Positions 1 through 26,392 of a stretch of 32,000 bases of DNA are shown here, one piece after another. This stretch comes from Candidatus Omnitrophota bacterium (GTDB taxonomy: Bacteria; Omnitrophota; Gorgyraeia; Zapsychrales; JANLHA01), in the NCBI GenBank assembly GCA_963662715.1, contig OY759724.1, positions 2,910,001-2,942,000 on the forward strand. The letters are read 5' to 3'. A model generated the notes under the pieces. It saw nothing but the letters and a program-made list of their open reading frames with translations, searched no databases and was not told where the DNA came from. Position 1 is the stretch's first letter. Each line of letters begins with the position of its first letter. A program made the position numbers and the translations under genes.

Positions 1-410
1 GACACACAGTTTACTATGCCAGATACCATATTGTCATTTGTACAAGATATAGGCGAAAGATATTGCGATGGGGTTCGGCGGAGTATGTCAAAAGATGCGT
101 TTTGGGAGTGATGAGACGGTATCCTGAGATCATCATTGAAAAAGTAAATACAGATTTAGATCATATGCATCTTTTGGCATCAATTCCGCCGAAGATGGCT
201 GTAAGTCATGCAGTAAATCTGATTAAGAGTAACACAGCAAAGCTGATGAGGCGGCGATATAAGTTTTTAGACAAGATGTATGTGAAAAAGGCAGGGATAT
301 GGTCAGCAGGGTATTTTGTGTCAACGGTTGGAGCCGACGAAGAATCGATAAAGCGATACATCGAATATCAAGGCCGGGAAGACCGAGGACAAACGCAGAT
401 AGAATTTTAG
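1..410 (+). CDS. tnpA: IS200/IS605-family Y1 (HUH) transposase TnpA, 5'-partial (N-terminus outside the window)
   Basis: The frame is open from the window edge (codons from nt 3: HTVYYARYHIVICTRYRRKIL...). Hallmarks are the 'YHIV.C.RYRRK' block, the HUH motif 'HMH' in DLDHMHLLASIPP, and the catalytic-Tyr block 'WSAGYFVSTVG'. The start listed at 63 in the ORF track is internal. Confidence 0.9.
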   Translation, partial: HTVYYARYHIVICTRYRRKILRWGSAEYVKRCVLGVMRRYPEIIIEKVNTDLDHMHLLASIPPKMAVSHAVNLIKSNTAKLMRRRYKFLDKMYVKKAGIWSAGYFVSTVGADEESIKRYIEYQGREDRGQTQIEF

Positions 411-441: not shown

Positions 442-461
442 CCACGGCCGTGAGGCCGTGG
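442..461 (+). repeat. Perfect 8-bp stem hairpin (CCACGGCC-GTGA-GGCCGTGG), candidate IS200 right-end recognition hairpin
   Basis: Read directly: a GC-rich stem with a GTGA tetraloop 32 nt downstream of the tnpA stop. No T-run follows, so it is not a classical terminator. Confidence 0.65.
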
Positions 462-520: not shown

Positions 521-2041
521 ATGAAGATAGCCTTTGTTAATGATTGGAGTCAGCAGATCGCCCTGCAGTATATCTTTGCCGTTTTAAAGAAACACGGCTA
601 TGACGTGAAGCTTTTTACGGAACCCAACTTGTTTGACGATATATGGATTTCCATCCCTCCCCTGCATAAGATCCTGGATTTTCGCGAAGAAGTGGTCAGG
701 AAACTTAAATTATATAATCCGGATTTGATCGGGATATCGGCCACAACGCGTACTTATGACTGGGCCTGTTATGTTGCCGAATCCATTAAGAAACACATGG
801 ACGTGCCGATTATCGCCGGTGGCCTGCATCCCACGTTTGTCCCGGAAAGAGTCATCGAAAACCCCTGTTATGATATGCTCTGTGTCGGGGAGGGGGAGTA
901 TCCTCTGCTGGAGCTCGTGCATAGCATGGAAAAGGGAACTGTGGATTATTCCATAAAAAACATCTGGTTTAAAAAAGACGGAAAAGTTATAAAGAATGAT
1001 ATCCGGCCGCTTATTGAAGATATCGATTCCATCCCTAACCCGGACATGGATGTCTACCTGGACAGCTATTCCTATCATACAAATTCTTACGTTATGAGCA
1101 CCCTTCGCGGTTGTCCTTTTTCTTGCAGTTACTGTTGCACATCGTATTATCATCAGCTGTATAAACTCAAAGGCCCGAGATTCCGCGTGCGAAGTGTCGA
1201 GAACGTCATTAAGGAACTGCTGGAAGTCAAAAGATTAAATAAGCGAACGCGGAAAATCATGTTTAACGACACCTGCTTCGGTTTTAACATCAAGTGGTTA
1301 AAAGAGTTCTCGAAGGAATATGCCCAAAAAATCAACATAGGCTTTTTTTGTGTCATGCACCCGGCGAGCATTACGGAAGAATCCATCGGATATTTAAAAG
1401 CCGCCAGATGCAGATGCGTGTCTTTGGGCATGCAGTCCTGGGAGGAAGACGTGCGGGTGAATTTGTATAATAGGCGGGTCAGCAATGAAGTCATGGAAAG
1501 GGCTGTTCAGCTCATTAAAAAAGCAAAGATGGAAGTGCTGTTGGACAATATTTACGGCCATCCCGGCTCGGATCCGGAAAAGTATATCCAATCGCTCGAC
1601 TTTTATACGCGCTGCAAGCCCACACGCAATTATTTTTACCGGCTGCATCATTTCCCCAAGACGGTTTTAACGGAAAAAGCGTATGCGAACAAATGGCTGT
1701 CGCACGGCCAGTATGAAAATGCCTTAGACGGCAAAGACTTGGGCACATTAAGGTATGAACCGGCCCAGGATGGTTCCTGTGCTCCCCAGGAAAAGATATA
1801 CAAGCAGATGCAGCTGTTGTTTATCCTTATCGACCTTGTCCCGGCAAGAGTCACTTATTATATTATCAAAAAAAGATGGTACAGGTTTTTCCCGGCATTC
1901 TTAAACTCGGCTCTTCTGACCATATGCCGCACATTAATCTCTTTTGACTTGGAGTCCTGCTACTTCCGTTCTATCATGTTTACCAGGTATTTTTATTTTA
2001 TAAAAAGGAAAATTTTAAGCCATTTAAGACTGAAAAAATGA
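521..2041 (+). CDS. B12-binding domain-containing (class B) radical SAM protein, substrate unknown
   Basis: The N-terminal cobalamin-binding-domain pattern is present (MKIAF..., PDLIGIS, VPIIAGGLHPT). The radical SAM cluster motif CxxxCxxC occurs in 'RGCPFSCSYCC'. The C-terminal tail is basic and hydrophobic. An ATGA overlap (2038-2041) joins it to the downstream paralogue. Confidence 0.85.
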   Translation: MKIAFVNDWSQQIALQYIFAVLKKHGYDVKLFTEPNLFDDIWISIPPLHKILDFREEVVRKLKLYNPDLIGISATTRTYDWACYVAESIKKHMDVPIIAGGLHPTFVPERVIENPCYDMLCVGEGEYPLLELVHSMEKGTVDYSIKNIWFKKDGKVIKNDIRPLIEDIDSIPNPDMDVYLDSYSYHTNSYVMSTLRGCPFSCSYCCTSYYHQLYKLKGPRFRVRSVENVIKELLEVKRLNKRTRKIMFNDTCFGFNIKWLKEFSKEYAQKINIGFFCVMHPASITEESIGYLKAARCRCVSLGMQSWEEDVRVNLYNRRVSNEVMERAVQLIKKAKMEVLLDNIYGHPGSDPEKYIQSLDFYTRCKPTRNYFYRLHHFPKTVLTEKAYANKWLSHGQYENALDGKDLGTLRYEPAQDGSCAPQEKIYKQMQLLFILIDLVPARVTYYIIKKRWYRFFPAFLNSALLTICRTLISFDLESCYFRSIMFTRYFYFIKRKILSHLRLKK

Positions 2042-3552
2042 AAATAGCTTTTATATCCGGCTCTTGTCAGACTTTGGGAATACAGTATATCTCCGCTGTC
2101 CTGAAGGCCGGTGGCCATCAGACAAAACTGTTCATGGATCCCCAGCTTTTTAATGACAGTTTTTTGTCCATAAATTTTTTGAGCCGGATGTTTGACCAGA
2201 AAAAAGAAATCGTAGCGCAATTGAAGGCTTATGCCCCCGACCTGATCGCCATTTCCGTTATCACAGATTTTTATCAATGGGCTTCGGGCATGGCGCGTAT
2301 GATCAAGCAGGAGATGGATGTGCCGATCATCCTGGGCGGCATTCACCCGACTTCGGTTCCGGAAAGGGTCATGAAAAATCCTTTGGTTGACATGATTTGT
2401 CTGGGGGAAGGGGAATATGCCATGCTGGAACTTGTCAATAGCATGGCCAAAGGGTGTATCGATTGTTCGATCCCGAACATCTGGTTTAAAAAGGACGGGA
2501 AAATTATAAAGAATGATATCCGCCCTCTTATAGAGGATATTGATTCTCTGCCTTTGCCGGATAAAGACCTTTACTACGAAGACAGCCCCAAGTTTGTTAA
2601 AGCTTATCCTTATCTGATAGCAACGGACCGCGGCTGTCCCTGTTCTTGCAGCTATTGTTGCCATTCCTACCTGAAGCCCTTTTATAAAGGAAAAGGGAGA
2701 TATTTCCGCCAACGCAGTGTTGAAAATGTTATGCGAGAACTGAAAGCGAGCAAGGCGAAATATCATATGAAACATATCGAATTTGTTGATGATTCTTTCG
2801 GACATAATATTGAGTGGCTGAAGCAGTTTTCCTCGGAATATCACAAGCACATCGGGATAAAGTTTTTATGCAATATGAGTCCTATGGATATCAATGAACA
2901 GTCTATCGAATGCCTGAAATTGGCCAATTGCGCTGTCATCAGTATGGGACTTCAATCGTGGGACAAGTCTATCAGGGAAAGAGTTTTTAACAGAAAGATT
3001 CCTAACGAAGTTATGGAGAATGCTATTTCCCTGATTAAAAAGGCTAACATTGCTCTGTCTGTCGACAACATCGTCGGGCTGCCAGAACAAAAAGAGGATG
3101 ACCTTATAGATTCGATTAAATTCTATTCGAAAATACGGCCTAACCGGATCTATTTTTTTAAGCTGCAATACTATCCCAACACTCAAATCACAAAAAGGGC
3201 AAGAGAGACCGGGCTTTTTACGGATGAGGGGTATGATGACCTCCTGGAGGGGAAATGTTCGGATGTCTTTCGCATGAAGTCGCTCGTCGCCCGCAAAAGA
3301 AGGTTGAATAAAAACATGATCAGGATCAACACCCTGTTGTTCCTGATGGATTTTCTCCCCGGGGAAATGATAGACCGTATTATTGAAAAAAAGACCTATT
3401 TGTATTTCCCGACATTGTTTGACCCCTATTTTATTTTTATCATCAGAAGACTGCTGTCCGCGGACGCGGAAGCCGGATTATATAGGGAAAGCACTTTAAG
3501 CCGGTATCGATATTATATAAAAAGAAAATTTTTAAAATGGGTGGGTTTTTGA
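2038..3552 (+). CDS. B12-binding domain-containing (class B) radical SAM protein, paralogue of 521-2041
   Basis: Same architecture as the upstream gene (MKIAF..., PDLIAIS, VPIILGGIHPT, 'RGCPCSCSYCC'). It is collinear with the upstream protein along its whole length and identical at roughly half of positions by eye. The start overlaps the upstream stop. Confidence 0.85.
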   Translation: MKIAFISGSCQTLGIQYISAVLKAGGHQTKLFMDPQLFNDSFLSINFLSRMFDQKKEIVAQLKAYAPDLIAISVITDFYQWASGMARMIKQEMDVPIILGGIHPTSVPERVMKNPLVDMICLGEGEYAMLELVNSMAKGCIDCSIPNIWFKKDGKIIKNDIRPLIEDIDSLPLPDKDLYYEDSPKFVKAYPYLIATDRGCPCSCSYCCHSYLKPFYKGKGRYFRQRSVENVMRELKASKAKYHMKHIEFVDDSFGHNIEWLKQFSSEYHKHIGIKFLCNMSPMDINEQSIECLKLANCAVISMGLQSWDKSIRERVFNRKIPNEVMENAISLIKKANIALSVDNIVGLPEQKEDDLIDSIKFYSKIRPNRIYFFKLQYYPNTQITKRARETGLFTDEGYDDLLEGKCSDVFRMKSLVARKRRLNKNMIRINTLLFLMDFLPGEMIDRIIEKKTYLYFPTLFDPYFIFIIRRLLSADAEAGLYRESTLSRYRYYIKRKFLKWVGF

Positions 3553-3819
3553 GGGCATCCCGCCTCCGGCCAGCCAGGATAATGCTCAATGGCTCAATAA
3601 TCTTTTTCTCTTAAAAGTTCTCAGCCTTTGGGACGCAGTCGGAGGGAGGGGGTGCAGCATAAACGCCGTTTTTCTTAGTCAGATATTTTTTAATCTAGAA
3701 TGAGTTGTCAAGGATGTCTCCCCGGGAAGACTGTTTTTGTTCCGACGTTATTCATGCCTTCAAAAGGTCGCAAAAAATTTTAATCTTGTTTTGATTTAAA
3801 ACAATAAAAATAAAAAAGA

Positions 3820-3848
3820 TTGACATTCTAAAATTCCCCATGTAAGAT
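3820..3848 (+). promoter_or_regulatory. Sigma70-type promoter: -35 TTGACA (3820-3825), 17-nt spacer, -10 TAAGAT (3843-3848)
   Basis: Read directly. An AT-rich UP-like tract lies upstream (3795-3819). It sits about 30-60 nt before the first riboswitch aptamer. Confidence 0.6.
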
Positions 3849-3877
3849 TAATCCATTGTTTTATGTTTTTGTTCTTT

Positions 3878-4049
3878 GAGGTGTTATTCAGTACGATATA
3901 AAACCGAATAAAAAAGGGAAGTTCCGTGAGATTCGGAGGCTGTCCGGCAACGGTAATATTTACTTTTTAATTGTAAATGAGCCCGAACACTTTTTTGTTT
4001 TGGGAAGTACCTTCTGTGGAAAGGGAAGATAAAGAATCGGATACTATAG
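3878..4049 (+). promoter_or_regulatory. Cobalamin riboswitch-like aptamer, unit 1 of a tandem pair
   Basis: The core reads 'AAAAGGGAAGTTCCGTGAGATTCGGAGGCTGTCCGGCAACGGTAA' (about 3911-3956). A B12-box-like 'GAGCCCGAACAC' follows at 3979-3990. It resembles unit 2 and the cob-operon riboswitch in this window. It deviates somewhat from consensus (one C short in the CCCGC element), hence lower confidence. Confidence 0.65.
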
Positions 4050-4078
4050 CCGGCCTTTCTACAGGTCGGTTTTTTTTT
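4050..4078 (+). terminator. Intrinsic terminator (expression platform of riboswitch unit 1)
   Basis: A 7-bp stem CCGGCCT (4050-4056) / AGGTCGG (4063-4069) with one G-U pair and a 6-nt loop, followed by nine T (4070-4078). Confidence 0.75.
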
Positions 4079-4104
4079 GACATTGAATCATTTGCAACAT
4101 AAAT

Positions 4105-4264
4105 AAATCATTCAGCAGGGAATTCGGTGAGAGTCCGAAGCTGTACCCGCAACTGTAAGCTTCATCTCCTTTGAGGATATTTTAAGAGGAGTTGAAGTGA
4201 GCCAGAAAACGAAAACCTCCGGGAATAGAGGAGCTAAGCCTACCTTTGTGGAAAAGGCGTTGAA
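4105..4264 (+). promoter_or_regulatory. Cobalamin riboswitch aptamer, unit 2
   Basis: 'CAGGGAATTCGGTGAGAGTCCGAAGCTGTACCCGCAACTGTAAGC' (about 4116-4160) is a close match to the conserved cobalamin-riboswitch core (GGGAA..GGTGA.A.TCC..CTGT.CCCGCAACTGTAA). The B12 box 'GTGAGCCAGAAAAC' lies at about 4197-4210. Confidence 0.85.
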
Positions 4265-4296
4265 CCCAGCTTCTCTTTAGGAGACTGGGATTTTTT
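4265..4296 (+). terminator. Intrinsic terminator (expression platform of riboswitch unit 2)
   Basis: Stem CCCAG(CT)TCTC / GAGACTGGG (4265-4275 / 4281-4289) with a 2-nt bulge, followed by ATTTTTT. It lies 46 nt before the ATG at 4343. Confidence 0.7.
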
Positions 4297-4342
4297 ATTG
4301 AACAAACCCAAATAAATTATTTTAAGGAAAGGAGTTTTTGAA

Positions 4343-5881
4343 ATGCAGAAATTTTTAATCCCGCAGCAGTTTATTTGCATCATGGCCTTGGTCGGTTTGT
4401 TGATGCCTGGAAATGCTGTTGCCGAAAATAATTTCAGTGAATATGGTTCTAACCAGATTGGGAATATTGTTTTACCGGAAGTTGAAGCGGGATGGTTCGT
4501 TCACTTTGATGCCATAGGTGAAACAGACCAGATGATCGGGGCCTACCCGGCAAAAGGGAGGGTCCTGGCAGCCAACGGAACAAGCATTTACCTGCAAAAG
4601 AACTACGGGGCCGGAGCGCATTCAGGCGACTGGCAATGGAACGGACCTGATCAGGCTCACACCGGGAATCTTCCCGGAGGTAACGATAATTTTTTAGTTG
4701 TCGGGACTACCACTGAGACGATGGATCCCATTTTTATAAAAGTATCTCCTGACGGTAATACCGTTGCACTCGGCGTGAGCTGGACCTCGCAACTATTGTT
4801 AGTTTTTCCGATCAGCTTGTTAGACCCGGACAATCCGCCTGTGTTGGATACGCACCCGTCTGTTACCGCGTATACAATTAACTGCTATGAGGGTCAATGG
4901 GTGCCGGAAGAAGCCGGAACAGCAAACTACCGTTTAGCACTGAATGGCGGGTCTTGGCCCGGTCCTTTTGAAAGTGATGTCGCGGTGCTTGACGTTACAC
5001 AGCCCAACTCTGAAGATCTTCCCTACAATCCTGTGCCTGTTATCGGTTCTATAGGAGGAGCGAGTGCTGATATTGATTTTGATAATGACGGGAATATGAT
5101 CACAGGTTGCGGGTACGGAACAGATCCGGAAACCGGGCAAATTAAAATTTTTACCCGAACGGATTGGGAAACGGTATACGCATCCGGTGGATCAACCGCA
5201 CCGCTGGATTATGCTGCCGCAGGACACTTATTGGCAGAAAGCATTTTAAGCGCCGCGGCCATGGGTGTGGATAAAGACGATAATCTTCATGTCGGAGGCG
5301 GGGACTTTGTCGATGGCTCTGAAAATGGCTTCGCGGCCCTGGTTCACGCGGACGTTGTCGCTAGAGTATTAACCGGAGGGGATCCGGTTAATGAAGGACT
5401 TGCCAGTGAGTATAGACAGCTCCAACCGGATTATTATGGGGATGACTCAGCTACATCACCTATTGAATTCAATCTTTTGGGAGAAGGCTTGAATATCTGC
5501 TGGAATCCAACCGGTACCGGCACGCAGGGTTCCGGATCGGATTGGTGGCAGGTGGGAGTCAAACCGGTTATGACAACCTATTACGGTGTCGACGCTCCTG
5601 ATAGTGATGGTGATGATATCCCTGATACATCGGATAACGCTTACATGACCCCTAATCCTAATCAATGGGATGCGGACGAAGATTCGTTCGGCAATGCCTG
5701 CGACTGCGACCTGGATAACAATGGCTCTGTGGGATTCAATGATTACGATTTATTTGTCGCTCAGTTCGGCCAGCCGGGAGGCCCGGACCAGCCTGCTGAT
5801 TTCGACGAGTCAAGCACAGTGGGTTTTAATGACCTCGATGTATTAATTACCCGCTGGGGCCAGGAAGAGCCTTTTAAATAA
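4343..5881 (+). CDS. Secreted protein of unknown function. It has an N-terminal signal peptide, a central region with FG-GAP/propeller-like Ca-binding motifs, and a C-terminal thrombospondin type-3 repeat plus a two-segment dockerin-like module.
   Basis: RBS AGGAG lies 7 nt upstream. The signal peptide is 'ALVGLLMPGNAVA|EN'. The TSP3-like repeat is 'DSDGDDIPDTSDNAYMTPNPNQWDADEDSFGNACD'. Two EF-hand/dockerin segments are present, 'DLDNNGSVGFNDYDLFVAQFG' and 'DFDESSTVGFNDLDVLITRWG' (D-x-D-x-N/S-G/S-x-V-x-x-x-D plus helix), separated by a Pro/Gly linker. Confidence 0.8.
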   Translation: MQKFLIPQQFICIMALVGLLMPGNAVAENNFSEYGSNQIGNIVLPEVEAGWFVHFDAIGETDQMIGAYPAKGRVLAANGTSIYLQKNYGAGAHSGDWQWNGPDQAHTGNLPGGNDNFLVVGTTTETMDPIFIKVSPDGNTVALGVSWTSQLLLVFPISLLDPDNPPVLDTHPSVTAYTINCYEGQWVPEEAGTANYRLALNGGSWPGPFESDVAVLDVTQPNSEDLPYNPVPVIGSIGGASADIDFDNDGNMITGCGYGTDPETGQIKIFTRTDWETVYASGGSTAPLDYAAAGHLLAESILSAAAMGVDKDDNLHVGGGDFVDGSENGFAALVHADVVARVLTGGDPVNEGLASEYRQLQPDYYGDDSATSPIEFNLLGEGLNICWNPTGTGTQGSGSDWWQVGVKPVMTTYYGVDAPDSDGDDIPDTSDNAYMTPNPNQWDADEDSFGNACDCDLDNNGSVGFNDYDLFVAQFGQPGGPDQPADFDESSTVGFNDLDVLITRWGQEEPFK

Positions 5882-5942: not shown

Positions 5943-8168
5943 ATGAAAAAAATTGTTCAGTTACTAACGATGCTTGTCGTATTTACCCTGTGCCTTGGCA
6001 TTCAATCCGTGTCCGCGGAAGATCCCGAAACCAATTGGCAGTTGCAACTTAAAGGGGTCGACGGAGATCTTGTTCAAGGATCATACTACTACGTGGAAGT
6101 CTGGTTTGTTTCAACGGATAATGGCGATAGCGGCACCGCCAATGACGGTGAGCAAAATCTGAACCGTTTCGGGCTTGATATTGATTATGACGAAACACGT
6201 TTGGAATCTCCGGCCATACTGTATGAATCTTATACAGATCCGAATGACCCGTTCGTTGAGATTTGGGACGGAGGTATTGTTCCGACGACTATAGAGGAAG
6301 ATACCGGGTATATAAGGGATGTGAACGGGAGTGAGCCGTTAGGCAGCAGCGGAGTATTTTTCCCTGATGACTTAAACGGAAAATTAGCCACCATCAGGTT
6401 TACGGCAAAAGTAACAGGCTCCCAGACAGACATTTTAACATGGGTTGATCCGGATATAGACGGGCTCGCCAGAATAGACGAGGTCACGTATAATCTTGAT
6501 CCGCTCATCCTTTGGAAAGACGGAACGTCTCTCAACGGCACCTATCTTCAGGAATATTACAGACTGCATCTGGGAATTAACGCCTTCGGTCAGGATGAAT
6601 TCCCGCAGGAAGTAAGCGAGCAGACATATTTCACCGGTGTGGCTTCAGCGTTGCAGGCCTTGCGTTTTTTAGGCCCGGCATATACCTGGCCGACCCAGCA
6701 GGAATTGTATGATGCGTATAATACCGGTGATGTCGGAGACGATTTCACCGCGCCTGCGTTAGAGACCTTGCTTAACGCCCTCACCTATAATAACAGCGGT
6801 TCGCCGTTTTATCGCATCTATCATTTTTCTGATTACAACGATAGCGATGAAGACACGGCTATTAAGAGAATCATTCACTGGATCGATTATGATGTCCCGA
6901 ACGCCCCGGATGAACCTAATGCGCCGGCCCATGTGCCTTTAAACGGCGCATACAACTGGATGACGGTTCGGGGGTTTGTCAGCGATATCGCTCCGACCGT
7001 AGAGGGTAATGTCTGGTCCATCCCGGAAGATGTCACGGTATACGGGCTTTGGCTCAACGACCCCAATGAGGATGGAATGGGCTACAACATCTATATGACC
7101 GGCGATGCCTTTAAGACGGCCTATGAGACTGTGGATGGAGGTCATCGCTCCGTTGTCGAGCCTCCTCTAGATGATGAAAAAATACAGAAATTTGAACAGG
7201 CTTTACCGGACATGAAAATCAATTATGTGAAAAGAAAAGCCAATAAACAACTCGCTCAGGCCATAAGATCAGATATGGAATTAACTTGGGATAAAAAAGA
7301 AGTTCTGGCCGCCAAGGAAGAATTAGATGAAACCCTTCTTCAACCTTTGGCTGAGGACGTGTTTGATCAATTCAAGTCACTAAACTGGGAAGACGTTATC
7401 CCGGAAGAATTGATGGCATCTCCTGATTTTAACAGCCTTTATTCAGAAACACCCTTTGCCTTGCCCATGACTGTCTTGAATGAGGAGAGTGCTACTGTCT
7501 ACACCCTCGTGCTTTTTGGCAAAGAACGGCCGCGCATGATCAGGAAATTGTATAAGGCCTATGCGGCCGTTGTGGTCGATGAAGAAGGCGTATTCCAGGA
7601 AGCATCCTGGACAACCTCCGGGGACACCTATCTTACGGAACGGGGAGCTTTGCATCTGGCCAAAAAAGCGCTGAAAGAAAACTACTTCAAAGAATTAAAA
7701 ATTTGGAAACGTTTATCAGGATCCCGCCGCTGGGACGTTGATATCGTCTTTCATCCGGAACTCAGCGGCAGTGTTTTTCTCCCGGTTTTTCAGGTGACTT
7801 CGCCTTTCGGCCCCGTTGTTTATGTGACACAGGATGGGGAAACGCAGATTGAAGGGGATGTCGATCCGGAGTTGAGAAAGGCGCTGCGGATAACGGCAGC
7901 CAAAAGAATAAAAAAAGCTGTTCTTGAAGAGACGACAAATAAGAAAGAAGACTTTCGGCAAGACGCTTTAGCACGTCTGCCTGTCATCAGCGTTGATGTC
8001 TCAGAACAGGACAATACTGTCGGTGTCCGTATTGACCCGGAAGATGCCAAAAAAACAAAAGAAATTATTGAAAGGGTTGCCGAACTCTACAAAGAAAAGA
8101 CCAATGCCGATGTTGTCACTGTCGTGCATTATGTCGGAGGTAAAATTTTCAGTCGATCGACTCATTAA
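5943..8168 (+). CDS. Secreted protein of unknown function with an N-terminal cohesin-like domain and a K/E-rich C-terminal region
   Basis: RBS GGAGAGG is present. The signal peptide is 'FTLCLGIQSVSA|ED'. Residues about 30-170 follow the cohesin pattern: 'GSYYYVEVWF', 'FGLDIDYDETRLES', 'GKLATIRFTAKVTG'. The rest is unassigned. The domain call is by eye only. Confidence 0.75.
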   Translation: MKKIVQLLTMLVVFTLCLGIQSVSAEDPETNWQLQLKGVDGDLVQGSYYYVEVWFVSTDNGDSGTANDGEQNLNRFGLDIDYDETRLESPAILYESYTDPNDPFVEIWDGGIVPTTIEEDTGYIRDVNGSEPLGSSGVFFPDDLNGKLATIRFTAKVTGSQTDILTWVDPDIDGLARIDEVTYNLDPLILWKDGTSLNGTYLQEYYRLHLGINAFGQDEFPQEVSEQTYFTGVASALQALRFLGPAYTWPTQQELYDAYNTGDVGDDFTAPALETLLNALTYNNSGSPFYRIYHFSDYNDSDEDTAIKRIIHWIDYDVPNAPDEPNAPAHVPLNGAYNWMTVRGFVSDIAPTVEGNVWSIPEDVTVYGLWLNDPNEDGMGYNIYMTGDAFKTAYETVDGGHRSVVEPPLDDEKIQKFEQALPDMKINYVKRKANKQLAQAIRSDMELTWDKKEVLAAKEELDETLLQPLAEDVFDQFKSLNWEDVIPEELMASPDFNSLYSETPFALPMTVLNEESATVYTLVLFGKERPRMIRKLYKAYAAVVVDEEGVFQEASWTTSGDTYLTERGALHLAKKALKENYFKELKIWKRLSGSRRWDVDIVFHPELSGSVFLPVFQVTSPFGPVVYVTQDGETQIEGDVDPELRKALRITAAKRIKKAVLEETTNKKEDFRQDALARLPVISVDVSEQDNTVGVRIDPEDAKKTKEIIERVAELYKEKTNADVVTVVHYVGGKIFSRSTH

Positions 8169-8197: not shown

Positions 8198-8383
8198 ATG
8201 CAGATCAAACTCAGAAAAAAACTAAGAAGTAAAAAAGGCGCCAGCGCTGTTGAATATGCCTTGATAGCCGGTTTGGTTTCTGTGGTGCTTATCGCAACGC
8301 TTGGCTCGTCAGGAACTTTCGGCACAGCGTTTACGGGTATGTTTGGCCGGCTTGCCGATGAATTAGATGCTGTTCAACCGTAA
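8198..8383 (+). CDS. flp: Flp-family type IVb/IVc pilin
   Basis: 61 aa with a basic leader, then the Flp processing motif 'G|ASAVEYALIAGLVSVVLI' (G/xxxxEY followed by a hydrophobic helix). RBS AAAGGAGG lies upstream. Confidence 0.9.
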   Translation: MQIKLRKKLRSKKGASAVEYALIAGLVSVVLIATLGSSGTFGTAFTGMFGRLADELDAVQP

Positions 8384-8811
8384 TGAAATTCTTTAATGCT
8401 TCAAAACGAACACCGTTTGGATTAGAAAGCGGGGCATCAGCCGTGGAGTTTGCGCTGGTGCTCCCTTTCTTGCTAATTGTCTTTTTTGCAATCTTTGAAA
8501 TGTCATGGCTTGTTTCGTCACAGACGATCCTCAATCACGCTGTTTTTGAAGCCGGCCGGACAGCCGCGATTGCCAAAGAAGAAGGATATTCTGATACGGA
8601 CGCGACGTCTTATGCGAAGGCAAGAGCCGTGAACTCCTATTGGATGGGGGCTCTGGACCCGGATGATGTGACGGTGAATTTTGATGAAAGCGGCTATGTC
8701 CCGCAGGTTGAAATATCCGCCCTGATGAACTATGTCCCTTTAACGGGGTGGTTTGACGCAAGCCAGCTTCCCGGCCAGATCACATCCCAGGCGGCTATGC
8801 CGTATCATTAA
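8383..8811 (+). CDS. tadE: TadE-like pseudopilin
   Basis: The N-terminus 'SGASAVEFALVLPFLLIVFFAIFE' is the TadE/TadG-like motif. It has a TAATG overlap with flp. Confidence 0.8.
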   Translation: MKFFNASKRTPFGLESGASAVEFALVLPFLLIVFFAIFEMSWLVSSQTILNHAVFEAGRTAAIAKEEGYSDTDATSYAKARAVNSYWMGALDPDDVTVNFDESGYVPQVEISALMNYVPLTGWFDASQLPGQITSQAAMPYH

Positions 8812-8829
8812 TGACAGGAAAGAAGACCA

Positions 8830-10068
8830 ATGAAAAATGTGCGAGGAATGATAGCCTTTTTGATCGCCTTGTTTTGCGGTTTGATCGCCGCGAAAATGAC
8901 ATCAAAATATCTGAGGGAACTGCAAACGCCGCAGCCGCCGCAACCGGACATTGAAATGCAGGATATAGCGCCGATGGCCCCCGGGCAGGACAAGCCATTT
9001 ACGCAATCAATCCCCCAGGGCATGCGGGCTTTGAGTATACCGGTTGATGAAGTGACCGGGGTTTCCCGGGAAGTCAACAAAGGGGATATCGTTGATGTGG
9101 TTGCTGTATCTAAAGCCTCAGCCGAATGTAAGAATAAAGACGGCCGTATCGCCCGGGTGATTTTACAGGGAATAGAGGTTTTAGCAGCGGCCGCTCAGCA
9201 GGAGGAAGAGGACAAGCCGGCGTTACAAGTCACTAAGAAAGAAAAAAAGTGGGTGGCGACTCTTCTGGTCAAAGCGGAAGAGGCCCCTCTGCTGGCAGCG
9301 GCTGACGCTTCGGCCGATTTAAGACTCGTTGTCAGAAATCCTTCTGATGACATAGCCTTGCAAGAGCCTCTTGCAAGGGGGTTCGATAAAAAACAGGGCA
9401 GCTATGTCCACCGCGACCAACGGCAGATTCCTCCTGTTGATATGAAGAAACTCGTCCGTCCGGGCATGCGCGCTTTTACCCTGATTACGGAACTGGAAGA
9501 CGGTGTTTCCGGCCGTCTGCAGCCGGGAGACAGGGTTGATGTCATTTTGACCTGCCCCTTCGGGCATTTTAGTGCCAAGGGCCATGAGGCGGGGGCCGAA
9601 GGGACGATCACATCAACCCACATGGCATCGCGTATTTTTTTGCAGGACATTGAAGTTTTGGCCGTTGATGAAAACGAAAGGCTCGTCATGCCGCCTAAGC
9701 TTTCCAATGATAACCTGAATGACGTTATGCCGACGGAAAATGCTGCGGTGACGGAAGTGGTCCGTTCCGTTGTCCTGCATCTTAGCCCGGAAGATGCCGA
9801 GTTGCTGGCGGTCGCTCATGATGCGACAGAAAAAAGTGTTATACGCCTGGTTCTTCGCCATCCGGAGGATGCCGGGATAGTCAAAACAGACGGTCAGCTG
9901 TTAATTGAGCTGTTAACGGAAAAAAAGGAGTATTCCAATGTAGAAGTTATCCGCGGGATAGAGCAAACTGCAAAGAAATTTTTTAAATACAAAAAAGGTG
10001 CGATTGCGACGCGTTCTGAAGCTTTGTTTAATCTGCCTGATGTTGATGATAGGGATGGGAACGAATGA
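8830..10068 (+). CDS. cpaB: CpaB/RcpC-like Flp pilus assembly protein with a tandemly duplicated RcpC-type domain
   Basis: An N-terminal TM anchor is followed by two similar modules. Module 1 is 'GMRALSIPVDEVTGVSREVNKGDIVDVVAV...LQGIEVLAA...LRLVVRNPSD'. Module 2 is 'GMRAFTLITELEDGVSGRLQPGDRVDVILT...LQDIEVLAVD...IRLVLRHPED'. It sits between tadE and the secretin. Confidence 0.75.
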   Translation: MKNVRGMIAFLIALFCGLIAAKMTSKYLRELQTPQPPQPDIEMQDIAPMAPGQDKPFTQSIPQGMRALSIPVDEVTGVSREVNKGDIVDVVAVSKASAECKNKDGRIARVILQGIEVLAAAAQQEEEDKPALQVTKKEKKWVATLLVKAEEAPLLAAADASADLRLVVRNPSDDIALQEPLARGFDKKQGSYVHRDQRQIPPVDMKKLVRPGMRAFTLITELEDGVSGRLQPGDRVDVILTCPFGHFSAKGHEAGAEGTITSTHMASRIFLQDIEVLAVDENERLVMPPKLSNDNLNDVMPTENAAVTEVVRSVVLHLSPEDAELLAVAHDATEKSVIRLVLRHPEDAGIVKTDGQLLIELLTEKKEYSNVEVIRGIEQTAKKFFKYKKGAIATRSEALFNLPDVDDRDGNE

Positions 10069-11708
10069 AAACATATTTCATAATACTGCTCTCTTTGATT
10101 TTTTTGTGTTGTGCGGCTGTGGCAAATGTTTCGGCGGAAGATATGGAGGACTATCGTGATGTGCGGGAGACTGTCTCACAGAAAAATCAAGGGAAGAAAA
10201 TTTCACTTGAACTAAATAAATCCTTGTTATTTCGCCTGGAAAGACCGGCTATCCGCGTATCAATTTCGGCGACAGATGTCGCAGACGTCACCCTGCTCAC
10301 CCCCCGGCAGATACTCGTTGTATCTAAGAAAATTATCGGAACGACCAATTTGATTGTCTGGTATGACGAAGAAGAGGTGGAGTCCTTTGATGTTGAGATC
10401 TTTATCCCCAACCGTTTGCTGGAGATCATTGAATCCACCATTAAAGAACACGCCCCCCGGGCCTACATCACCCTGAATATCACTCCTACAAGCATTATTA
10501 TCGACGGTTTTGTTGAAGACCAGGAAACTTTTCTTCGTGTTGAAAAAATCGTCAAAAGCTACGTCCCGAACGTCACTAATCTCATCAAAATACGGGGAAC
10601 GATTCAAAAGGCCATTAATCGGGTGACCGGAGGAGAACACGTTAAAGTCATTATGGAAAAATCAGGCCTTTTGCTGGACGGGACGGTAGACAGTCAGGCG
10701 ACTCTGATCCGGGTGCTGCAAGTGGCCCGGGGCTACTCAAAAGATGTCAATAATATGATGACCGTTAAAAGTCCGCAACAGGTTCAGCTGGAAGTCACCA
10801 TTGCCGAAGTCTCCCGCAGCGCGATCAAACAACGCGGATTAAGTTATTTGTTAAACTCTGACGGCGGCCGGCTGGGACTTTTAAAGTCAGGAGCCTTATC
10901 AGATACCAGCGATGATTCTTCCGGCAGTTATTCGATTGAAAGTGAAGGTGTTCCTGATTTGAATGATGTCGCTAGCGCTCTGTGGGGGGCACAAGTCTCT
11001 GATGTCCTGTCGGACTCGGCCGTGAATTCGGCTTATGGCTCAGCCTTCCAGATTCTGGTACAGTCTATGGATGATAACTGGCTTTCGATCATCAGTCTTT
11101 TGAAAGGTCAGGGGCTGGCGAGGACCCTCGCGACACCAACCCTGGTCGCCCTCAATGGCCAAAAAGCGAAATTTCTTGTCGGGGGAGAAATTCCTTATGT
11201 TACGGAAGAGGCGATCATTTTCCGGGAATTTGGCATTCAACTGGAATTCACGCCTTATCTTACGGGTAAAGAAAGCATGACACTTGTTGTTGAACCGACG
11301 GTGAGCTCGGTGGACTGGTCTTTTGACCCGCCGGGATTAAAGGAACGCGCCGGGTCGACAACCTTGAGCCTAAAAGACGGACAGACATTTGTGATGGCCG
11401 GGCTCATCACAGAAGAATTTTCCGAAATCAGCAATAAAATTCCATTTTTGGCTGACATCCCCGTGCTCGGTTCGCTTTTTGAAAGCAAGCAGTTCCGGAA
11501 AAGCGAATCAGAATTGATTATCGTTGTGACGCCGCGTTTAGTCCGGCCCCTGAATCGAAATGAATTAAAGAAAGTGCCTATTTTTAAACAGCCTAAAGAT
11601 ATCAATGATGAGGAATTTTTCCTCTATAAAACAAACACAGACTCGAATGTGACAGACCGTAATTCCGCTCCCCCGCAGACTGTGGGGACATTCGGGTTCG
11701 CAAGGTAA
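10065..11708 (+). CDS. cpaC: CpaC/RcpA-family outer-membrane secretin
   Basis: A signal peptide is present, with a CpaC N-terminal domain ('LELNKSLLFRLERPAIRVSISATDVADVTLL...TTNLIVW'). Two BON-like modules follow. The secretin core reads 'LATPTLVALNGQKAKFLVGGEIPY' and 'IPFLADIPVLGSLFESK...SELIIVVTPRLV'. Confidence 0.9.
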   Translation: MKTYFIILLSLIFLCCAAVANVSAEDMEDYRDVRETVSQKNQGKKISLELNKSLLFRLERPAIRVSISATDVADVTLLTPRQILVVSKKIIGTTNLIVWYDEEEVESFDVEIFIPNRLLEIIESTIKEHAPRAYITLNITPTSIIIDGFVEDQETFLRVEKIVKSYVPNVTNLIKIRGTIQKAINRVTGGEHVKVIMEKSGLLLDGTVDSQATLIRVLQVARGYSKDVNNMMTVKSPQQVQLEVTIAEVSRSAIKQRGLSYLLNSDGGRLGLLKSGALSDTSDDSSGSYSIESEGVPDLNDVASALWGAQVSDVLSDSAVNSAYGSAFQILVQSMDDNWLSIISLLKGQGLARTLATPTLVALNGQKAKFLVGGEIPYVTEEAIIFREFGIQLEFTPYLTGKESMTLVVEPTVSSVDWSFDPPGLKERAGSTTLSLKDGQTFVMAGLITEEFSEISNKIPFLADIPVLGSLFESKQFRKSESELIIVVTPRLVRPLNRNELKKVPIFKQPKDINDEEFFLYKTNTDSNVTDRNSAPPQTVGTFGFAR

Positions 11709-11711
11709 AAT

Positions 11712-12884
11712 ATGAATTACGAAGAATATCAATACGCTATTATTTCTTTGGATGAAAAATTCACGGCCCATATTAAAAGAATTCTCAATCCCGCCATAAC
11801 GGCAGATCACATTATCTCCGCCGGTTCTTTAACACGGCTGCCAGTAAGTCAAAAAACTATTGTATTATTCGATGCGCGGACGTTGAATGTCCAGTCCATG
11901 GAATGTGCCCGGCAGTTTAAAAAAAGGAAAAGGGACGCTAAATTTCTGATTATTTCGGACAACATGGATCCTCATGAGATACGAAACTGGATGAGACTGG
12001 GAGCGGTTGATTATTTGACGCCCCCTTTAGATAGTAAAGAATTGCTGAATGCCGTTCAGCGCATGGTCGATTTAGACCATTCCCAAAATTTCAACGACTC
12101 GCAGGTTATGGGGGTCTTCAGCTTGAAAGGCGGACAGGGGGTTACATCCATAGCCACCAATATGACTGACCATATCACCCGTCTCACGCATGAAAAAAAC
12201 CTGTTAATGGACCTTAATCTTTATATGGGGCATATGTCTGTTCTTTTAAATCAAAAATGCACCTATACCCCTTTTAATCTGGTCCGGGATTTGCCGCGGG
12301 CGGATGAAGACCTTCTCCTGTCTTCTATAGAAAAACACGAAAACGGGTTCCACCTTTTGGGAGTTTCAGATGAGATTGCCGATGCGGAGCAGATCAGCCG
12401 TGAAGATGTGAAATCCATGCTTCAAGTATTAAGAAAAGTTTTTAATTTTATTGTCGTTGATCTCCCGCATGACTTTTCCAACCAGACCCTGGCCGCTCTT
12501 GATGAGTCCGATAGCATTCTTCTTGTTGTTCAACAGAGCGTGCCGAGTTTGAAAAGCGCCCAAATGGCCATTCAAATATTCGGGGAACTCGGGTATCCGG
12601 ATCATAAGGTCCATGTGGTTTTAAACCGGTATCTCAGCCGTAATCCCATTCAACACGATGATATTGAGGTAGCCCTGAATAAGCCTGTGTTTATGTCTTT
12701 AGAGAATAATTATCCCGTTATGTCGGAAGTTTTTAACAGCGGTCAGACCATTCATTCATTTGAAAGGCATTCAGATATTAACATAACATTTCATCATTTT
12801 GCAGCAAAATTGATCGGTGTAAATCCGGCCTTGAAACGCATGAGAACATTAAAAAGGCTCTTTTCGAGAATTAAAGGATCATAG
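11712..12884 (+). CDS. cpaE: TadZ/CpaE: atypical receiver domain plus ParA/MinD-like ATPase
   Basis: The N-terminus is receiver-like and lacks the conserved KP lysine ('DYLTPP'). A deviant Walker A occurs in 'FSLKGGQGVTSIATN'. It sits between the secretin and tadA. Confidence 0.8.
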   Translation: MNYEEYQYAIISLDEKFTAHIKRILNPAITADHIISAGSLTRLPVSQKTIVLFDARTLNVQSMECARQFKKRKRDAKFLIISDNMDPHEIRNWMRLGAVDYLTPPLDSKELLNAVQRMVDLDHSQNFNDSQVMGVFSLKGGQGVTSIATNMTDHITRLTHEKNLLMDLNLYMGHMSVLLNQKCTYTPFNLVRDLPRADEDLLLSSIEKHENGFHLLGVSDEIADAEQISREDVKSMLQVLRKVFNFIVVDLPHDFSNQTLAALDESDSILLVVQQSVPSLKSAQMAIQIFGELGYPDHKVHVVLNRYLSRNPIQHDDIEVALNKPVFMSLENNYPVMSEVFNSGQTIHSFERHSDINITFHHFAAKLIGVNPALKRMRTLKRLFSRIKGS

Positions 12885-12889
12885 CCTTT

Positions 12890-14239
12890 ATGAGCTTAAC
12901 GGAACGTTTCCTGAGAAACCAAAAAAGTGATAAAAATTATCACAACGAGCAGTTGACAATCGATGAGGCCTCTTTTGATAAAGCCAAATTGCTTGTTCAT
13001 GAAAAGGTCGTTGAGATCATGGATTTATCCAGTATCATGGAAATGCCCCGGGAAGAGCTTGAACGGTCTGTCCGGGATATTTTGATCCAAATGCTCGAAA
13101 CCGAAAAGATCCCGCTCAACAGAGCAGAACGTTCGCGTTTGATTTCGGAATTGTTAAATGAAATCCTGGGTTTGGGCCCTATTGAACTATTGATACATGA
13201 TGAAAGCGTACAGGATATCCTTATTAACGGAAGCAAAAACGTTTATATTGAAAAACAGGGTGTCATCCATCAAACAGCCATTCATTTCCGGAATGACGAA
13301 CATTTGATGCAGGTGATTGACAAAATTGTATCCAAAGTGGGCAGACGGGTGGATGAATCCTCCCCTATGGTTGATGTCCGGCTGCCCGACGGATCGCGCG
13401 TAAATGTCATTATTCCCCCTGTTGCTTTGGATGGGCCGCAGGTATCCATTAGAAAATTCGGTGACACCCGGTTAACACAGGAAGGGTTACTACAACATCA
13501 GAGCGCTACGGCCCAAATGACGGCATACCTTCAAATGGCGCTACGCTCCAAACTGAATATCCTTATTTCGGGCGGAACAGGCAGCGGGAAGACGACGTTG
13601 TTGAATATTTTATCAGGCCATATCCCGCATAACGAAAGAATCGTAACCATCGAAGATATTGCTGAACTTAAGTTAAACCAGCCTCATGTCGTGCGGCTGG
13701 AAAGCCGCCCGGAAAACATTGAATCCAGGGGGGAGATCACATTGACAGACCTCGTTAAAAACAGCCTGCGTATGCGGCCGGACCGAATTATTGTCGGAGA
13801 GACGCGGGGGGGGGAAGTCCTGAACATGCTTCAGGCCATGAATACAGGGCATCCAGGCTCCATGAGCACAATACATGCTAATTCCCCCCGGGATGCTTTC
13901 TCCCGCATGGAAGTGATGATTGGTATGGCTCCGACCATTTTATCAGAACGGGGAGCCAAAGGTTTGATCGCCAGTGCTATTAATGTGATCGTTCAATGTT
14001 CACGTCTTGTCGACGGCTCGCGCAAGGTCATATCCATTTCCGAAGTCTGCGGGATAGAAGACGGCGAAATCATGACGCACGAAATTTTCATTTTTGAACA
14101 GCAGGGGATCAGTGAGGAGGGGCGAGTCTACGGCTGTTTTAAGCCCGTAGGTTCAACATCCATTTACAAGGAACATTTCTTGTCTAACGGCATGGAACTG
14201 CCCCCGGCCCTGTTTCATTTCCAGCAAAAGGTTCGTTGA
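12890..14239 (+). CDS. cpaF: TadA/CpaF secretion ATPase
   Basis: Walker A is '[12 protein letters not shown]', Walker B/Asp box is '[12 protein letters not shown]', and the His box is '[12 protein letters not shown]'. Confidence 0.93.
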
Positions 14240-14240
14240 A

Positions 14241-15179
14241 ATGGTTTTGTTAATAACCATCATTGTTTTTTTGACAATATTTTTTTCCGTGCTGACGGTG
14301 TATTTCCTGAAAGAGGACAATCGGCGTAAAGTTAAGAACACTTTACTTATACGATTGCTTCCGGCTGAAGAAGCCCTGCCGCATCATTTTTATCGTCTGA
14401 ATTCCCAAGTAGCGGACTCTCATGATTTTTGGTTAGCCAAGAAAATCAGGAAGCATCTGGAAATCGCCAACATGGAAATCCCGGTTAAAACTTTTATTTT
14501 TTATTGTTCTCTTATATCCGTTATAACATTAATTTTATTTTTATTCCTGACGGGGCCTTTAACGGCCTTAACAATGAGTTTATTGTCAGGAGGGCTTGGG
14601 CCTTTTTTGTACATCATGTATCGCCGGCATAAAAGAGAAAATGCCTTGGTTGCGCAGTTGCCCGATGCCGTTGATATGATCAGCCGGGGCCTTCGCTCGG
14701 GGCTGAATCTGGATGATAGTCTCAAGGAGATTGCCCGCTCCTTTTCAGACCCCATCGGACCGGAATTCAGGCGCATGTATGAAGAAATGGCGCTTGGCCT
14801 GTCCTTCGAGCAGGCTATAAGAGGTTTAGAAAGCCGTTTTGTCCGGGTACATGACGTGAAAATTCTTTGCGCGGCGTTTCTGATTCAGAGGGAAACAGGG
14901 GGGAACTTAACGTCTATTCTGGACACAATATCCAGGACGATCCGTTCCCGCCTGGTGTTTTTCCGCCAGGTACAAGCTCTGGGGACAGAAGGCCGCGTGT
15001 CGGCCTACATCCTCGGCAGCCTGCCTTTTTTGTTTGCTCTTATTACTTGGTTCATTCAGCCAGACTATATTAATCTGCTGTTTACAGAACCGGCGGGAAA
15101 AACGGCTTTAAGTTTAGCCTTGATTTTTGAGATGGCAGGATTCGCTCTTATGTACAGGATGGGAAAGGTGGAGGTATGA
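14241..15179 (+). CDS. tadB: TadB (type II secretion system F-family inner-membrane platform protein)
   Basis: Polytopic membrane protein with a T2SSF-type cytoplasmic domain ('LPDAVDMISRGLRSGLNLDDSL'), immediately after tadA. Confidence 0.85.
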   Translation: MVLLITIIVFLTIFFSVLTVYFLKEDNRRKVKNTLLIRLLPAEEALPHHFYRLNSQVADSHDFWLAKKIRKHLEIANMEIPVKTFIFYCSLISVITLILFLFLTGPLTALTMSLLSGGLGPFLYIMYRRHKRENALVAQLPDAVDMISRGLRSGLNLDDSLKEIARSFSDPIGPEFRRMYEEMALGLSFEQAIRGLESRFVRVHDVKILCAAFLIQRETGGNLTSILDTISRTIRSRLVFFRQVQALGTEGRVSAYILGSLPFLFALITWFIQPDYINLLFTEPAGKTALSLALIFEMAGFALMYRMGKVEV

Positions 15180-16881: not shown

Positions 16882-16893
16882 AGGAGCGAAATT

Positions 16894-17193
16894 ATGACAT
16901 GCGGGACAGAACGTGGTGTTTTTATCCTACGAATATGTTTTTTTGTTTTTATTTTAAGCGGCCTGCAGGGATGCGCCCCGGTTGCTGAGGAAACATATCC
17001 TTTCGGCGAATCTTCCAAAACATTATTTGCGGCACAGGTCATCAATCCGAATGCCCCGGAAGATCCCTCCCCGGTTAATGAAATGCCCGGGCAGGTCAGT
17101 GAGCTGATCTATTATCAACGTTATATGGATGAGATGGTCACCCCGGAAGATGAAGAAGAAAAAAGCAGCGGAGGGACATGTCATAATGGATAA
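16894..17193 (+). CDS. Small acidic lipoprotein of unknown function (tad-locus accessory)
   Basis: The lipobox is 'ILSGLQGC|AP'. It is 99 aa with an acidic C-terminus and is tightly packed between the tadD-like and tadG-like genes. It may resemble the small DUF3613-type proteins of other tad loci, but that rests on recall only. Confidence 0.55.
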   Translation: MTCGTERGVFILRICFFVFILSGLQGCAPVAEETYPFGESSKTLFAAQVINPNAPEDPSPVNEMPGQVSELIYYQRYMDEMVTPEDEEEKSSGGTCHNG

Positions 17194-21082: not shown

Positions 21083-21099
21083 ATTCATCTAACAATTTG

Positions 21100-21317: not shown

Positions 21318-21329
21318 TTGAAATCAGAA

Positions 21330-21953: not shown

Positions 21954-21963
21954 GGATATTCGT

Positions 21964-26340: not shown

Positions 26341-26392
26341 TAAACAGCTTCTCCAGAAAAGATGATTTTTTAAGGCATCCGGGAATCATTTT

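Follow-up and report, generated by a model that had tools for sequence, protein, structure and literature searches.

Two adjacent genes, open reading frames (ORFs) A and B, lie near the start of a 32,000-nucleotide stretch of DNA from a Candidatus Omnitrophota bacterium (contig OY759724.1, positions 2,910,001 to 2,942,000; the whole stretch is referred to herein as the window), and encode paralogous radical S-adenosylmethionine (SAM) proteins with N-terminal B12-binding domains. A and B are predicted to be two non-redundant members of a set of class B-type radical SAM paralogues that is native to the Omnitrophota. This set is encoded in relatives as an array that is interleaved with, or followed by, genes for DegT-type aminotransferases, a small GT2 glycosyltransferase, an MprF-type (LPG_synthase_TM) protein, WbqC, and a YfhO-like membrane glycosyltransferase. 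The name used here, Omnitrophota multi-radical-SAM array, is an operational definition of this analysis and not that of a published family. Quite possibly, though just short of probably, the array carries out the stepwise radical tailoring of a membrane-anchored envelope glycolipid or of a polyprenyl-phosphate-linked sugar. A and B are best annotated as a detached part of this array, rather than as a two-enzyme system that is complete in itself and linked to B12 supply.

The basic description of the pair in an earlier note, made from the sequence of the window, holds. Pfam, translation, and composition all confirm two proteins of about 505 residues with the same architecture, that is, a B12-binding domain, a radical SAM core with a CxxxCxxC motif, and an aromatic and basic tail of about 90 residues (Table 1). 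Both domains of both proteins exceed the curated Pfam cutoffs (32.1 bits for PF02310 and 29.5 bits for PF04055), A and B show 46% identity across their full length (E = 1e-162), and neither contains a SPASM domain in Pfam or NCBIfam. The ATGA overlap said to join them is also present; in the junction, aaaaaATGAaaata, the ATG of B (2038-2040) overlaps the TGA of A (2039-2041), with four bases in common. In relatives, neighbouring array genes usually share short start/stop overlaps of this sort (one lies at 11521/11524 of locus L004). Both ORFs are full length and free of frameshifts, with the translational coupling intact. Both proteins keep 31 of the 31 invariant columns of a 50-sequence family alignment, and the pN/pS of A and B against their orthologues is 0.17-0.22, with synonymous sites saturated; on these two grounds, A and B look like functional genes. 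On the opposite strand, a 285-codon ORF (1993-2850) runs across the A/B junction, and several antisense ORFs of 60-150 codons lie within A; these are unsupported and most likely by-products of coding-strand composition.

At E <= 1e-10, 1411 homologues of the family were recovered, and among the best 120 of the 1411, nearly all those with an organism name are from Omnitrophota. The CobQ encoded in the window has Omnitrophota proteins, at 59-64% identity, as its best named matches. Arrays were found in loci L001, L004-L013, and L025-L030. They consist of 9-11 consecutive radical SAM genes, mostly overlapping and tightly packed, with six or seven B12-type paralogues, two to five enzymes of the Tes/GDGT-MAS fold, and one MiaB-like enzyme. 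Each long Omnitrophota locus contains 3-7 genes of the B12 type and 1-5 of the Tes-like type, and ORF clustering over the loci fetched to that point gave 70 B12-type, 29 Tes-like, and 10 MiaB-like genes. In the nearest relatives, a Tes-like gene is followed by a B12-type gene, a MiaB-like (UPF0004) gene, three B12-type genes, a 446-residue Tes-like gene, the A-type gene, and one or two further B12-type genes. The A orthologue is thus the eighth array gene, directly after the 446-residue Tes-fold gene, and is not part of a pair there. A is 67% identical to P0002, and a neighbour-joining (NJ) tree resolves one orthogroup per array position, in which A falls together with the position-8 representatives from L001, L004, and L006-L008. 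B branches alone in the tree. Orthologues of B at 77% identity were found in two Logan contigs, L024 and L030, where they are the last B12-type gene, placed between the position-9 gene and the gene for a membrane protein termed C6, directly before LPG_synthase_TM, GT2, and WbqC; a metagenome scan with B returned five loci only, none closer than 51%. The position-9 gene is of the P0059 type; it comes after A in L001 and L004-L008 and before B in L024 and L030. After the array, loci of the L004/L007/L008 type encode the 558-residue C6, LPG_synthase_TM, a small GT2, WbqC, a YfhO-like protein, and a CapK-like ligase.

The content of the array evidently changes, as far as these loci allow it to be read, through local duplication, gain, loss, and shuffling. 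One Omnitrophota metagenome-assembled genome (MAG) has three tandem A-type (position-8) paralogues (L006, 6965-11521), and L030 has no A-type gene. Two gene fusions were also seen. One, in L004 (11521-13815), encodes 764 residues with two B12-binding domains on either side of the radical SAM core; the other, in L030 (1311-4121), encodes 936 residues and joins a B12-type radical SAM enzyme to a MiaB-like (UPF0004) enzyme, a fusion that hints that the B12-type and MiaB-like enzymes act together.

These neighbourhoods alter the picture of an isolated pair. The earlier statement that no partner is adjacent is true within the window, but the orthologues of A and B lie in conserved arrays beside glycan genes; they adjoin a defined pathway, which in the window has simply been disrupted, an outcome that the earlier note itself had named as telling against its proposal. 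Its suggestion that the paralogues act in sequence fares better. Sequential, non-redundant action is plausible and is favoured by the finding that each array position forms a separate orthogroup. No description of such an array was found in the literature on Omnitrophota radical SAM enzymes, on WbqC with radical SAM enzymes, or on Tes homologues; the "ladderane" regions called by antiSMASH in Omnitrophota (PMC9902471) might or might not correspond to array loci.

In the window, A and B stand apart from this arrangement. The earlier note placed an insertion sequence, IS200, directly upstream of the pair, and this is confirmed by a Y1 transposase gene; a hairpin follows, 60 nt before the start of A. 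The transposase matches Pfam Y1_Tnp (75.5 bits) and NCBIfam transpos_IS200 (79.1 bits); the called ORF covers 63..410, the reading frame stays open back to base 3 (YHIVICTRYRRKIL...), and both the HUH motif (HMHLL) and the region of the catalytic Tyr are present. Since the transposase looks intact as far as it is visible and the hairpin is probably the right-end hairpin of the element, the insertion looks recent. The position-9 gene is not found between A and B. Searches of the 32-kb window by tblastn with Tes-fold, MiaB-like, DegT, C6, LPG_synthase_TM, GT2, WbqC, and YfhO queries yielded no partner genes or remnants of them, and the only matches to the MiaB-like and position-9 queries were A and B themselves, at the level of the superfamily or of paralogues. 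A and B are orthologous to fixed array positions but have no array location within the window. As array composition varies among lineages (L006, L030, L004), the A-B junction is best seen as one more event of gain, loss, or shuffling. Two particular histories were considered and rejected. Recent gene conversion between A and B is not supported, the best DNA repeat between them being 273 nt at 72% identity. Nor is B a recombination chimera arising from deletion of the position-9 gene, since its similarity to the orthologue P0039 (65-90% identity) is uniform from end to end.

The same facts could be read as decay. A-B would then be a stranded remnant, cut from its pathway by rearrangement or IS200 activity and now functionless or decaying, a reading that does not exclude the others. 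The closeness of IS200 to A, the absence of the position-9 gene from between A and B and of the downstream module, and the failure to find a sigma-70-like promoter between IS200 and A are all in keeping with this. Nonetheless, it appears very unlikely, as both ORFs are full length, unshifted, and still coupled, every invariant family residue is kept, other partners are still encoded in the genome, and the array may continue upstream beyond the window.

The 3,360,633-bp contig that carries A and B also encodes P0135, P0015, and P0059. In the NJ tree, P0015 falls in the position-5 group and P0059 in the position-9 group, while P0135 is the orthologue of the 446-residue Tes-like gene that normally precedes A. 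A model of P0135 (predicted local distance difference test score (pLDDT) 92.1) matches GDGT-MAS/Tes (PDB 7tol, 7tom) over its full length, including the N-terminal zinc ribbon (Pfam Zn_ribbon_HMPTM), with a template-modelling (TM) score of 0.81-0.83 at 26% identity; the next match scores 0.41. P0135 differs from these enzymes in being about 50 residues shorter and in scoring 160.8 bits against the Tes family model, below its cutoff of 450. Besides those of the radical SAM motif and the zinc ribbon, the only invariant cysteines of P0135-type proteins are C305, C402, and C415, which suggests a single auxiliary cluster rather than two. Tes-fold proteins adjoin the orthologues of A and B as well.

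The presence of this fold raises the possibility that the array tailors core membrane lipids. The B12-type paralogues would methylate, cyclise, or desaturate hydrocarbon tails, possibly membrane-spanning ones, and the Tes-fold enzymes would join the tails, as a bacterial counterpart of the archaeal toolkit of Tes, GrsA/GrsB, and Gmm/GDGT-methylase/Ted. Apart from the full GDGT-MAS/Tes fold of P0135, this is favoured by the mixture of Tes-fold, B12-type, and SPASM radical SAM enzymes in the arrays, the same classes that serve the tailoring of glycerol dialkyl glycerol tetraethers (GDGTs) (PMC13459092; 10.1101/2025.10.20.683597), and by GrsA/GrsB being B12-domain radical SAM enzymes with a C-terminal helix proposed as a substrate binder (PMC13459092). 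Moreover, homologues of Mss and Gms/Hbs have been reported in Omnitrophota MAGs (10.1101/2023.10.20.563219; PMC11868695), and A and B have basic, aromatic tails. We nevertheless regard core-lipid tailoring as somewhat unlikely, in view of the sub-cutoff Tes score of P0135, of the scores of A and B against a lipid-associated family (see below), and of the gene neighbourhoods.

These neighbourhoods were summarised in a census of 112 flanking proteins, in which the 25 most frequent families were considered. GT2 glycosyltransferases lead (14 of the 112), followed by DegT/DnrJ/EryC1 aminotransferases (9) and SAM methyltransferases (5); WbqC, nucleoside diphosphate (NDP)-sugar epimerase/dehydratases, LPG_synthase_TM, and SPASM radical SAM proteins contribute four each, and YfhO three. 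Sugar genes thus dominate, and no lipid-synthesis family occurs within these 25. Moreover, DegT genes lie inside some of the arrays (L011-L013, L030), and Wzy_C, a Wzx-type flippase, and PseC/ArnB-like transaminases occur near family members. Distant homologues (33-40% identity) in Parcubacteria, Nealsonbacteria, and Nanoarchaeia are likewise found among glycosyltransferases, sugar-1-phosphate nucleotidyltransferases, and 4,6-dehydratases, with heptose-pathway genes beside one of them. Such homologues in the glycan loci of Patescibacteria and Nanoarchaeia also speak against core lipids, as these groups generally lack de novo lipid synthesis. In L017, L018, and L020 (Nanoarchaeia, Patescibacteria), family homologues and Tes-like genes were seen together amid glycosyltransferase and nucleotide-sugar genes; L020 further contains a GmhA-transaldolase fusion and a gene of the NTP_transferase cluster, whose homologue in L017 resembles the heptose-1-phosphate guanylyltransferase HddC. 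The earlier proposal of a lipid or other hydrophobic substrate therefore survives in part: it is plausible from the Tes fold of P0135 and from the basic and aromatic tails, but gene context favours sugars or glycolipids at least as strongly as core membrane lipids.

If sugars alone are considered, the paralogues could act on soluble substrates, C-methylating or otherwise modifying a cytoplasmic amino- or deoxy-sugar in its NDP-activated form, as GenK/GenD1 do for aminoglycoside sugars, with the product passing into an O-antigen-like or S-layer glycan. The aminotransferases, NDP-sugar 4,6-dehydratase/epimerases, nucleotidyltransferases, Wzy_C, flippase, and many glycosyltransferases that adjoin family members in three phyla accord with this, as does AprD4 being the top match of the family profile among solved structures. 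Three features are left unexplained, however: the presence in each long array of two to five enzymes that fold like a lipid-coupling enzyme, the hydrophobic and basic character of the C-terminal domains, and the conserved trio of a small GT2, an MprF-type protein, and YfhO. The small GT2 resembles polyprenyl-phosphate sugar synthases (ArnC, PpgS, PgfS, and dolichyl-phosphate hexose transferase), and a small GT2 with an MprF-type membrane protein and a YfhO-like protein is the type of trio found in lipid-carrier-based extracytoplasmic glycosylation (GtrB/CsbB-YfhO, ArnC-ArnT). Purely cytoplasmic nucleotide-sugar tailoring is therefore rather improbable.

A glycolipid or lipid-linked sugar was chosen as the preferred substrate, since it accommodates the Tes-fold (lipid) evidence and the sugar-gene evidence together. 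On this proposal, each B12-type paralogue would introduce one modification at its own position, either the C-methylation of an unactivated carbon or the formation of a ring or C-C bond, the Tes-fold enzymes would make C-C links, and the basic and aromatic C-terminal helical bundle would dock each enzyme on the membrane-bound substrate. In a bolder form, which is possible but doubtful, the array would represent an undescribed Omnitrophota system, of which Patescibacteria and DPANN archaea have smaller forms and in which up to eleven radical SAM enzymes (seven B12-type paralogues, several Tes-fold C-C-coupling enzymes, and one MiaB-like enzyme) would hyper-modify a membrane-anchored glycolipid or lipid-linked sugar. 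Such a system would be the bacterial equivalent of tetraether tailoring in archaea, linked to glycosylation outside the cytoplasm.

Several points weigh against the glycolipid proposal. Gene context is guilt by association, and it is common for envelope-glycan genes to adjoin many things. Lipid tails are suggested by the Tes-fold partner but sugars by the DegT and nucleotide-sugar genes, and the glycolipid that would reconcile them is itself undemonstrated. As described below, A and B have, by sequence comparison, no characterised close homologue, their cobalamin binding is unproven, and B has no predicted transmembrane or strongly amphipathic element. Finally, the glycan module is absent within 28 kb downstream of A and B, so the two might work in another context or be nearing loss.

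The hidden Markov model subgroup assignment proposed in the earlier note was carried out with Pfam and NCBIfam and gave superfamily domains, but no named NCBIfam family reached its cutoff. The best NCBIfam match of both proteins is HpnJ (TIGR03471; 96.5 bits for A and 111 for B, against an equivalog cutoff of 577.6), followed by BchE (TIGR02026; 95.3 and 108, cutoff 481), TIGR04013 (93 and 89, cutoff 251), and the ladderane-associated B12/radical SAM family of lipid biosynthesis, TIGR04072 (87.8 and 89.6, cutoff 360); the AprD4 family, NF033070, gives 29.7 and 33.9 bits against a cutoff of 500. No photosynthesis genes are present in the window. A role in a defence system was rejected, the sole match being to PADLOC PDC-M51A, weak and at superfamily level (28 and 58 bits). 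Matches of the same weak, superfamily-level kind to ApyD (NF050148; 76-82 bits) and to the RiPP C-methyltransferase family TIGR03975 (46-50 bits), together with SPASM radical SAM genes near some arrays, could be taken to mean that the enzymes modify a ribosomally synthesised and post-translationally modified peptide (RiPP), as PoyB/PoyC or ApyD do. RiPP maturation is, however, extremely unlikely: these scores lie far below the cutoffs of 750 and 282 bits, the region downstream of B (3540-4345) contains no plausible small precursor ORF, the arrays leave no room for precursors since their genes overlap or lie less than 40 nt apart, and no protease, transporter, or RiPP recognition element (RRE) family is among the listed families of the census.

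An AlphaFold2 (AF2) model of A, built on the 50-sequence family alignment (pLDDT 91.7, predicted TM score (pTM) 0.90), shows a partial TIM barrel between an N-terminal Rossmann domain and a C-terminal five-helix bundle. Foldseek against the PDB returned only class B-type matches for it, namely TsrM, OxsB, MgmA/QCMT, CysS, and AprD4, with TM scores of 0.61-0.66 and 12-18% identity; the MgmA/QCMT structure is PDB 9ccb (PMC11796369, PMC12931638). In comparisons of the family profile with solved structures, the N-terminal domain aligns with the true cobalamin binders OxsB and TokK, and the top match overall is AprD4 (E = 3e-19), over the radical SAM core only. The features of the class B superfamily are thus found, a Rossmann-type B12 domain and a CxxxCxxC core on a partial TIM barrel, the three cysteines of which are invariant in the family. 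Cobalamin use by A and B is likely but unproven, as AprD4 and ArsL have similar Rossmann-like domains and bind no B12 (PMC12931638). No sequence motif is universal to cobalamin binding. These results support the earlier view of the pair as class B-type radical SAM paralogues to which no function can be assigned from sequence; by all appearances, they belong to a known superfamily but to an uncharacterised subfamily with no named family.

The C-terminal tails had been taken as amphipathic elements indicating membrane association. Basic and aromatic they are. Over the last 90 residues, aromatic residues make up 18-19% (11-12% in the remainder of each protein) and basic residues 18-20% (13-14% in the remainder), and over the last 85 residues the net charge comes to +12 (A) and +9 (B). 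However, in the confident model of A, the tail forms a five-helix bundle (residues 422-437, 442-450, 453-456, 463-473, and 477-505; pLDDT 83-92), and hence a folded domain rather than a loose amphipathic appendage. Neither protein has a segment of transmembrane grade, the maximal Kyte-Doolittle hydropathy over 19 residues (KD19) being 1.57 in A and 1.36 in B. The hydrophobic moment of the last helix is high in A (0.59) compared with B (0.40).

The window is otherwise rich in B12-related elements (Table 1), and the earlier note had supposed that the locus links cobamide supply to the chemistry of A and B. This could not be upheld. The first riboswitch lies downstream of both genes, which by position are not under riboswitch control. 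Moreover, no cobalamin riboswitch was found in the array loci of relatives (eight loci, 144 kb), and no cob gene family is among the listed families of their flanking-gene census. The adjacency of A and B to the B12 elements is best regarded as coincidental. By eye only, a hairpin with a T-run was noted after the second of the tandem riboswitches (~4262-4300). Downstream of these riboswitches lie genes for proteins of 512 residues (4343-5881; D/N-rich C-terminus) and 741 residues (5943-8168), both with hydrophobic, signal-peptide-like N-termini and neither with a Pfam or PHROG match; as putative B12-repressed secreted proteins, they might be cobamide-capture proteins. A complete Tad/Flp pilus locus follows directly downstream of them.

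Table 1. Features of the window, numbered from its first nucleotide
Feature	Position	Strand	Basis or remark
IS200/IS605-family Y1 transposase (tnpA), 5' end cut by window start	1..410	+	Pfam, NCBIfam
Perfect 8-bp GC-rich hairpin CCACGGCC-GTGA-GGCCGTGG	442..461	.	Sequence read; terminator-like on minus strand
ORF A, B12-binding-domain radical SAM protein, 506 aa, ATG start	521..2041	+	ORF list, Pfam, synteny, AF2
A, N-terminal Rossmann-type B12-binding domain, residues 12-132	554..916	+	PF02310, 63.6 bits
A, radical SAM core, residues 193-361	1097..1603	+	PF04055, 65.9 bits
A, CxxxCxxC, C198/C202/C205	1112-1135	+	Three Cys invariant in family alignment
A, C-terminal helical bundle, residues 422-505	1784..2035	+	AF2 helices, charge, composition
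A/B start/stop overlap, ATGA	2038..2041	+	Read from sequence
ORF B, B12-binding-domain radical SAM protein, 504 aa, ATG start	2038..3552	+	ORF list, Pfam, orthology
B, N-terminal B12-binding domain, residues 7-132	2056..2433	+	PF02310, 65.3 bits
B, radical SAM core, residues 198-362	2629..3123	+	PF04055, 65.4 bits
B, CxxxCxxC, C200/C204/C207	2635-2658	+	Translation
B, C-terminal basic/aromatic helical region, ~residues 420-504	3295..3549	+	Composition, charge, alignment with A bundle
Promoter-like site	3820-3848		Precedes tandem riboswitches
AdoCbl-II riboswitch	3901-4000		First of tandem
Terminator-like hairpin	4048-4071		After first riboswitch
Cobalamin riboswitch	4119-4210		Second of tandem
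Tad/Flp pilus locus	8383-18625		TadE-like, RcpC/CpaB, secretin, ParA/CpaE-like ATPase, TadA/CpaF, two TadB/C-like, TPR protein, TadG-like
Cobalamin riboswitch	21092-21226		Leads lower-pathway cob operon
cob operon	21291-27901		Histidine phosphatase (CobC-like), CobU, CobT, CobS, class I/II aminotransferase (CobD-like), CbiB, CobQ
Diphthami_syn_2-family gene	27912-28574		
BtuF/FecCD/ABC (btuFCD-like) transporter	28578-31269		
Corrinoid adenosyltransferase CobA	31266-31796		
Further riboswitch	31841-32000		Cut by window end

On its own, the A/B pair is an ordinary-looking duo of uncharacterised enzymes, and its value lies in the array. Class B radical SAM enzymes catalyse some of the hardest C-H functionalisations known, and the majority are uncharacterised; the Omnitrophota are mostly uncultured and often host-dependent nanobacteria. 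The pair points to a conserved array that concentrates six or seven class B paralogues and several homologues of a tetraether-forming enzyme beside envelope glycosylation genes. If the product were a modified glycolipid or a membrane-spanning lipid, the array would be relevant to the origin of orphan bacterial lipid biomarkers, to the construction of the cell surface in Omnitrophota and perhaps in the candidate phyla radiation (CPR) and DPANN, and to the diversification of position-specific radical-enzyme paralogues.

Among known systems, HpnJ is a hopanoid-associated class B-type enzyme that remodels a lipid-attached (amino)sugar, the type of substrate proposed here for A and B, and is their top NCBIfam match. 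However, the scores of A and B are about one-fifth of its 577.6-bit cutoff, and no hopanoid genes were seen in any locus. TsrM, OxsB, MgmA/QCMT, CysS, and TokK share with A and B the three-part build of a Rossmann B12 domain, a partial TIM barrel, and a C-terminal domain (Foldseek E = 1e-21 to 1e-18, TM 0.61-0.66), but they are only 14-18% identical and none is known from a multi-paralogue array; their substrates are, respectively, tryptophan, a nucleoside, a protein glutamine, a carrier-bound polyketide intermediate, and a carbapenam. AprD4 (PDB 6fd2), the radical SAM diol dehydratase that acts on an aminoglycoside sugar in apramycin synthesis, superimposes on A with a TM score of 0.65. AprD4 binds no cobalamin (PMC12931638), and its profile match is restricted to the radical SAM core; the N-termini of A and B align instead with OxsB and TokK.

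The closest parallel in organisation is the archaeal toolkit for tetraether tailoring, which comprises Tes, GrsA/B, Gms, Gmm, GDGT methylases, and Ted (PMC13459092; 10.1101/2025.10.20.683597). GrsA/GrsB, Gmm, the GDGT methylases, and Ted are, like A and B, paralogous B12-domain radical SAM proteins of about 500 residues with a C-terminal helical element, a likeness of architecture only. Enzymes of the GrsA/GrsB type are archaeal and act on isoprenoid tetraethers, whereas the family of A and B reaches six or seven paralogues per array and lies amid sugar-nucleotide and glycosyltransferase genes. Nonetheless, GrsA/GrsB-type enzymes act successively at different positions of one hydrophobic substrate alongside a Tes-fold enzyme, the arrays described here likewise pair B12-type with Tes-fold enzymes, and their mix of enzyme classes (Tes fold, many B12-type, SPASM) parallels that of the archaeal toolkit.

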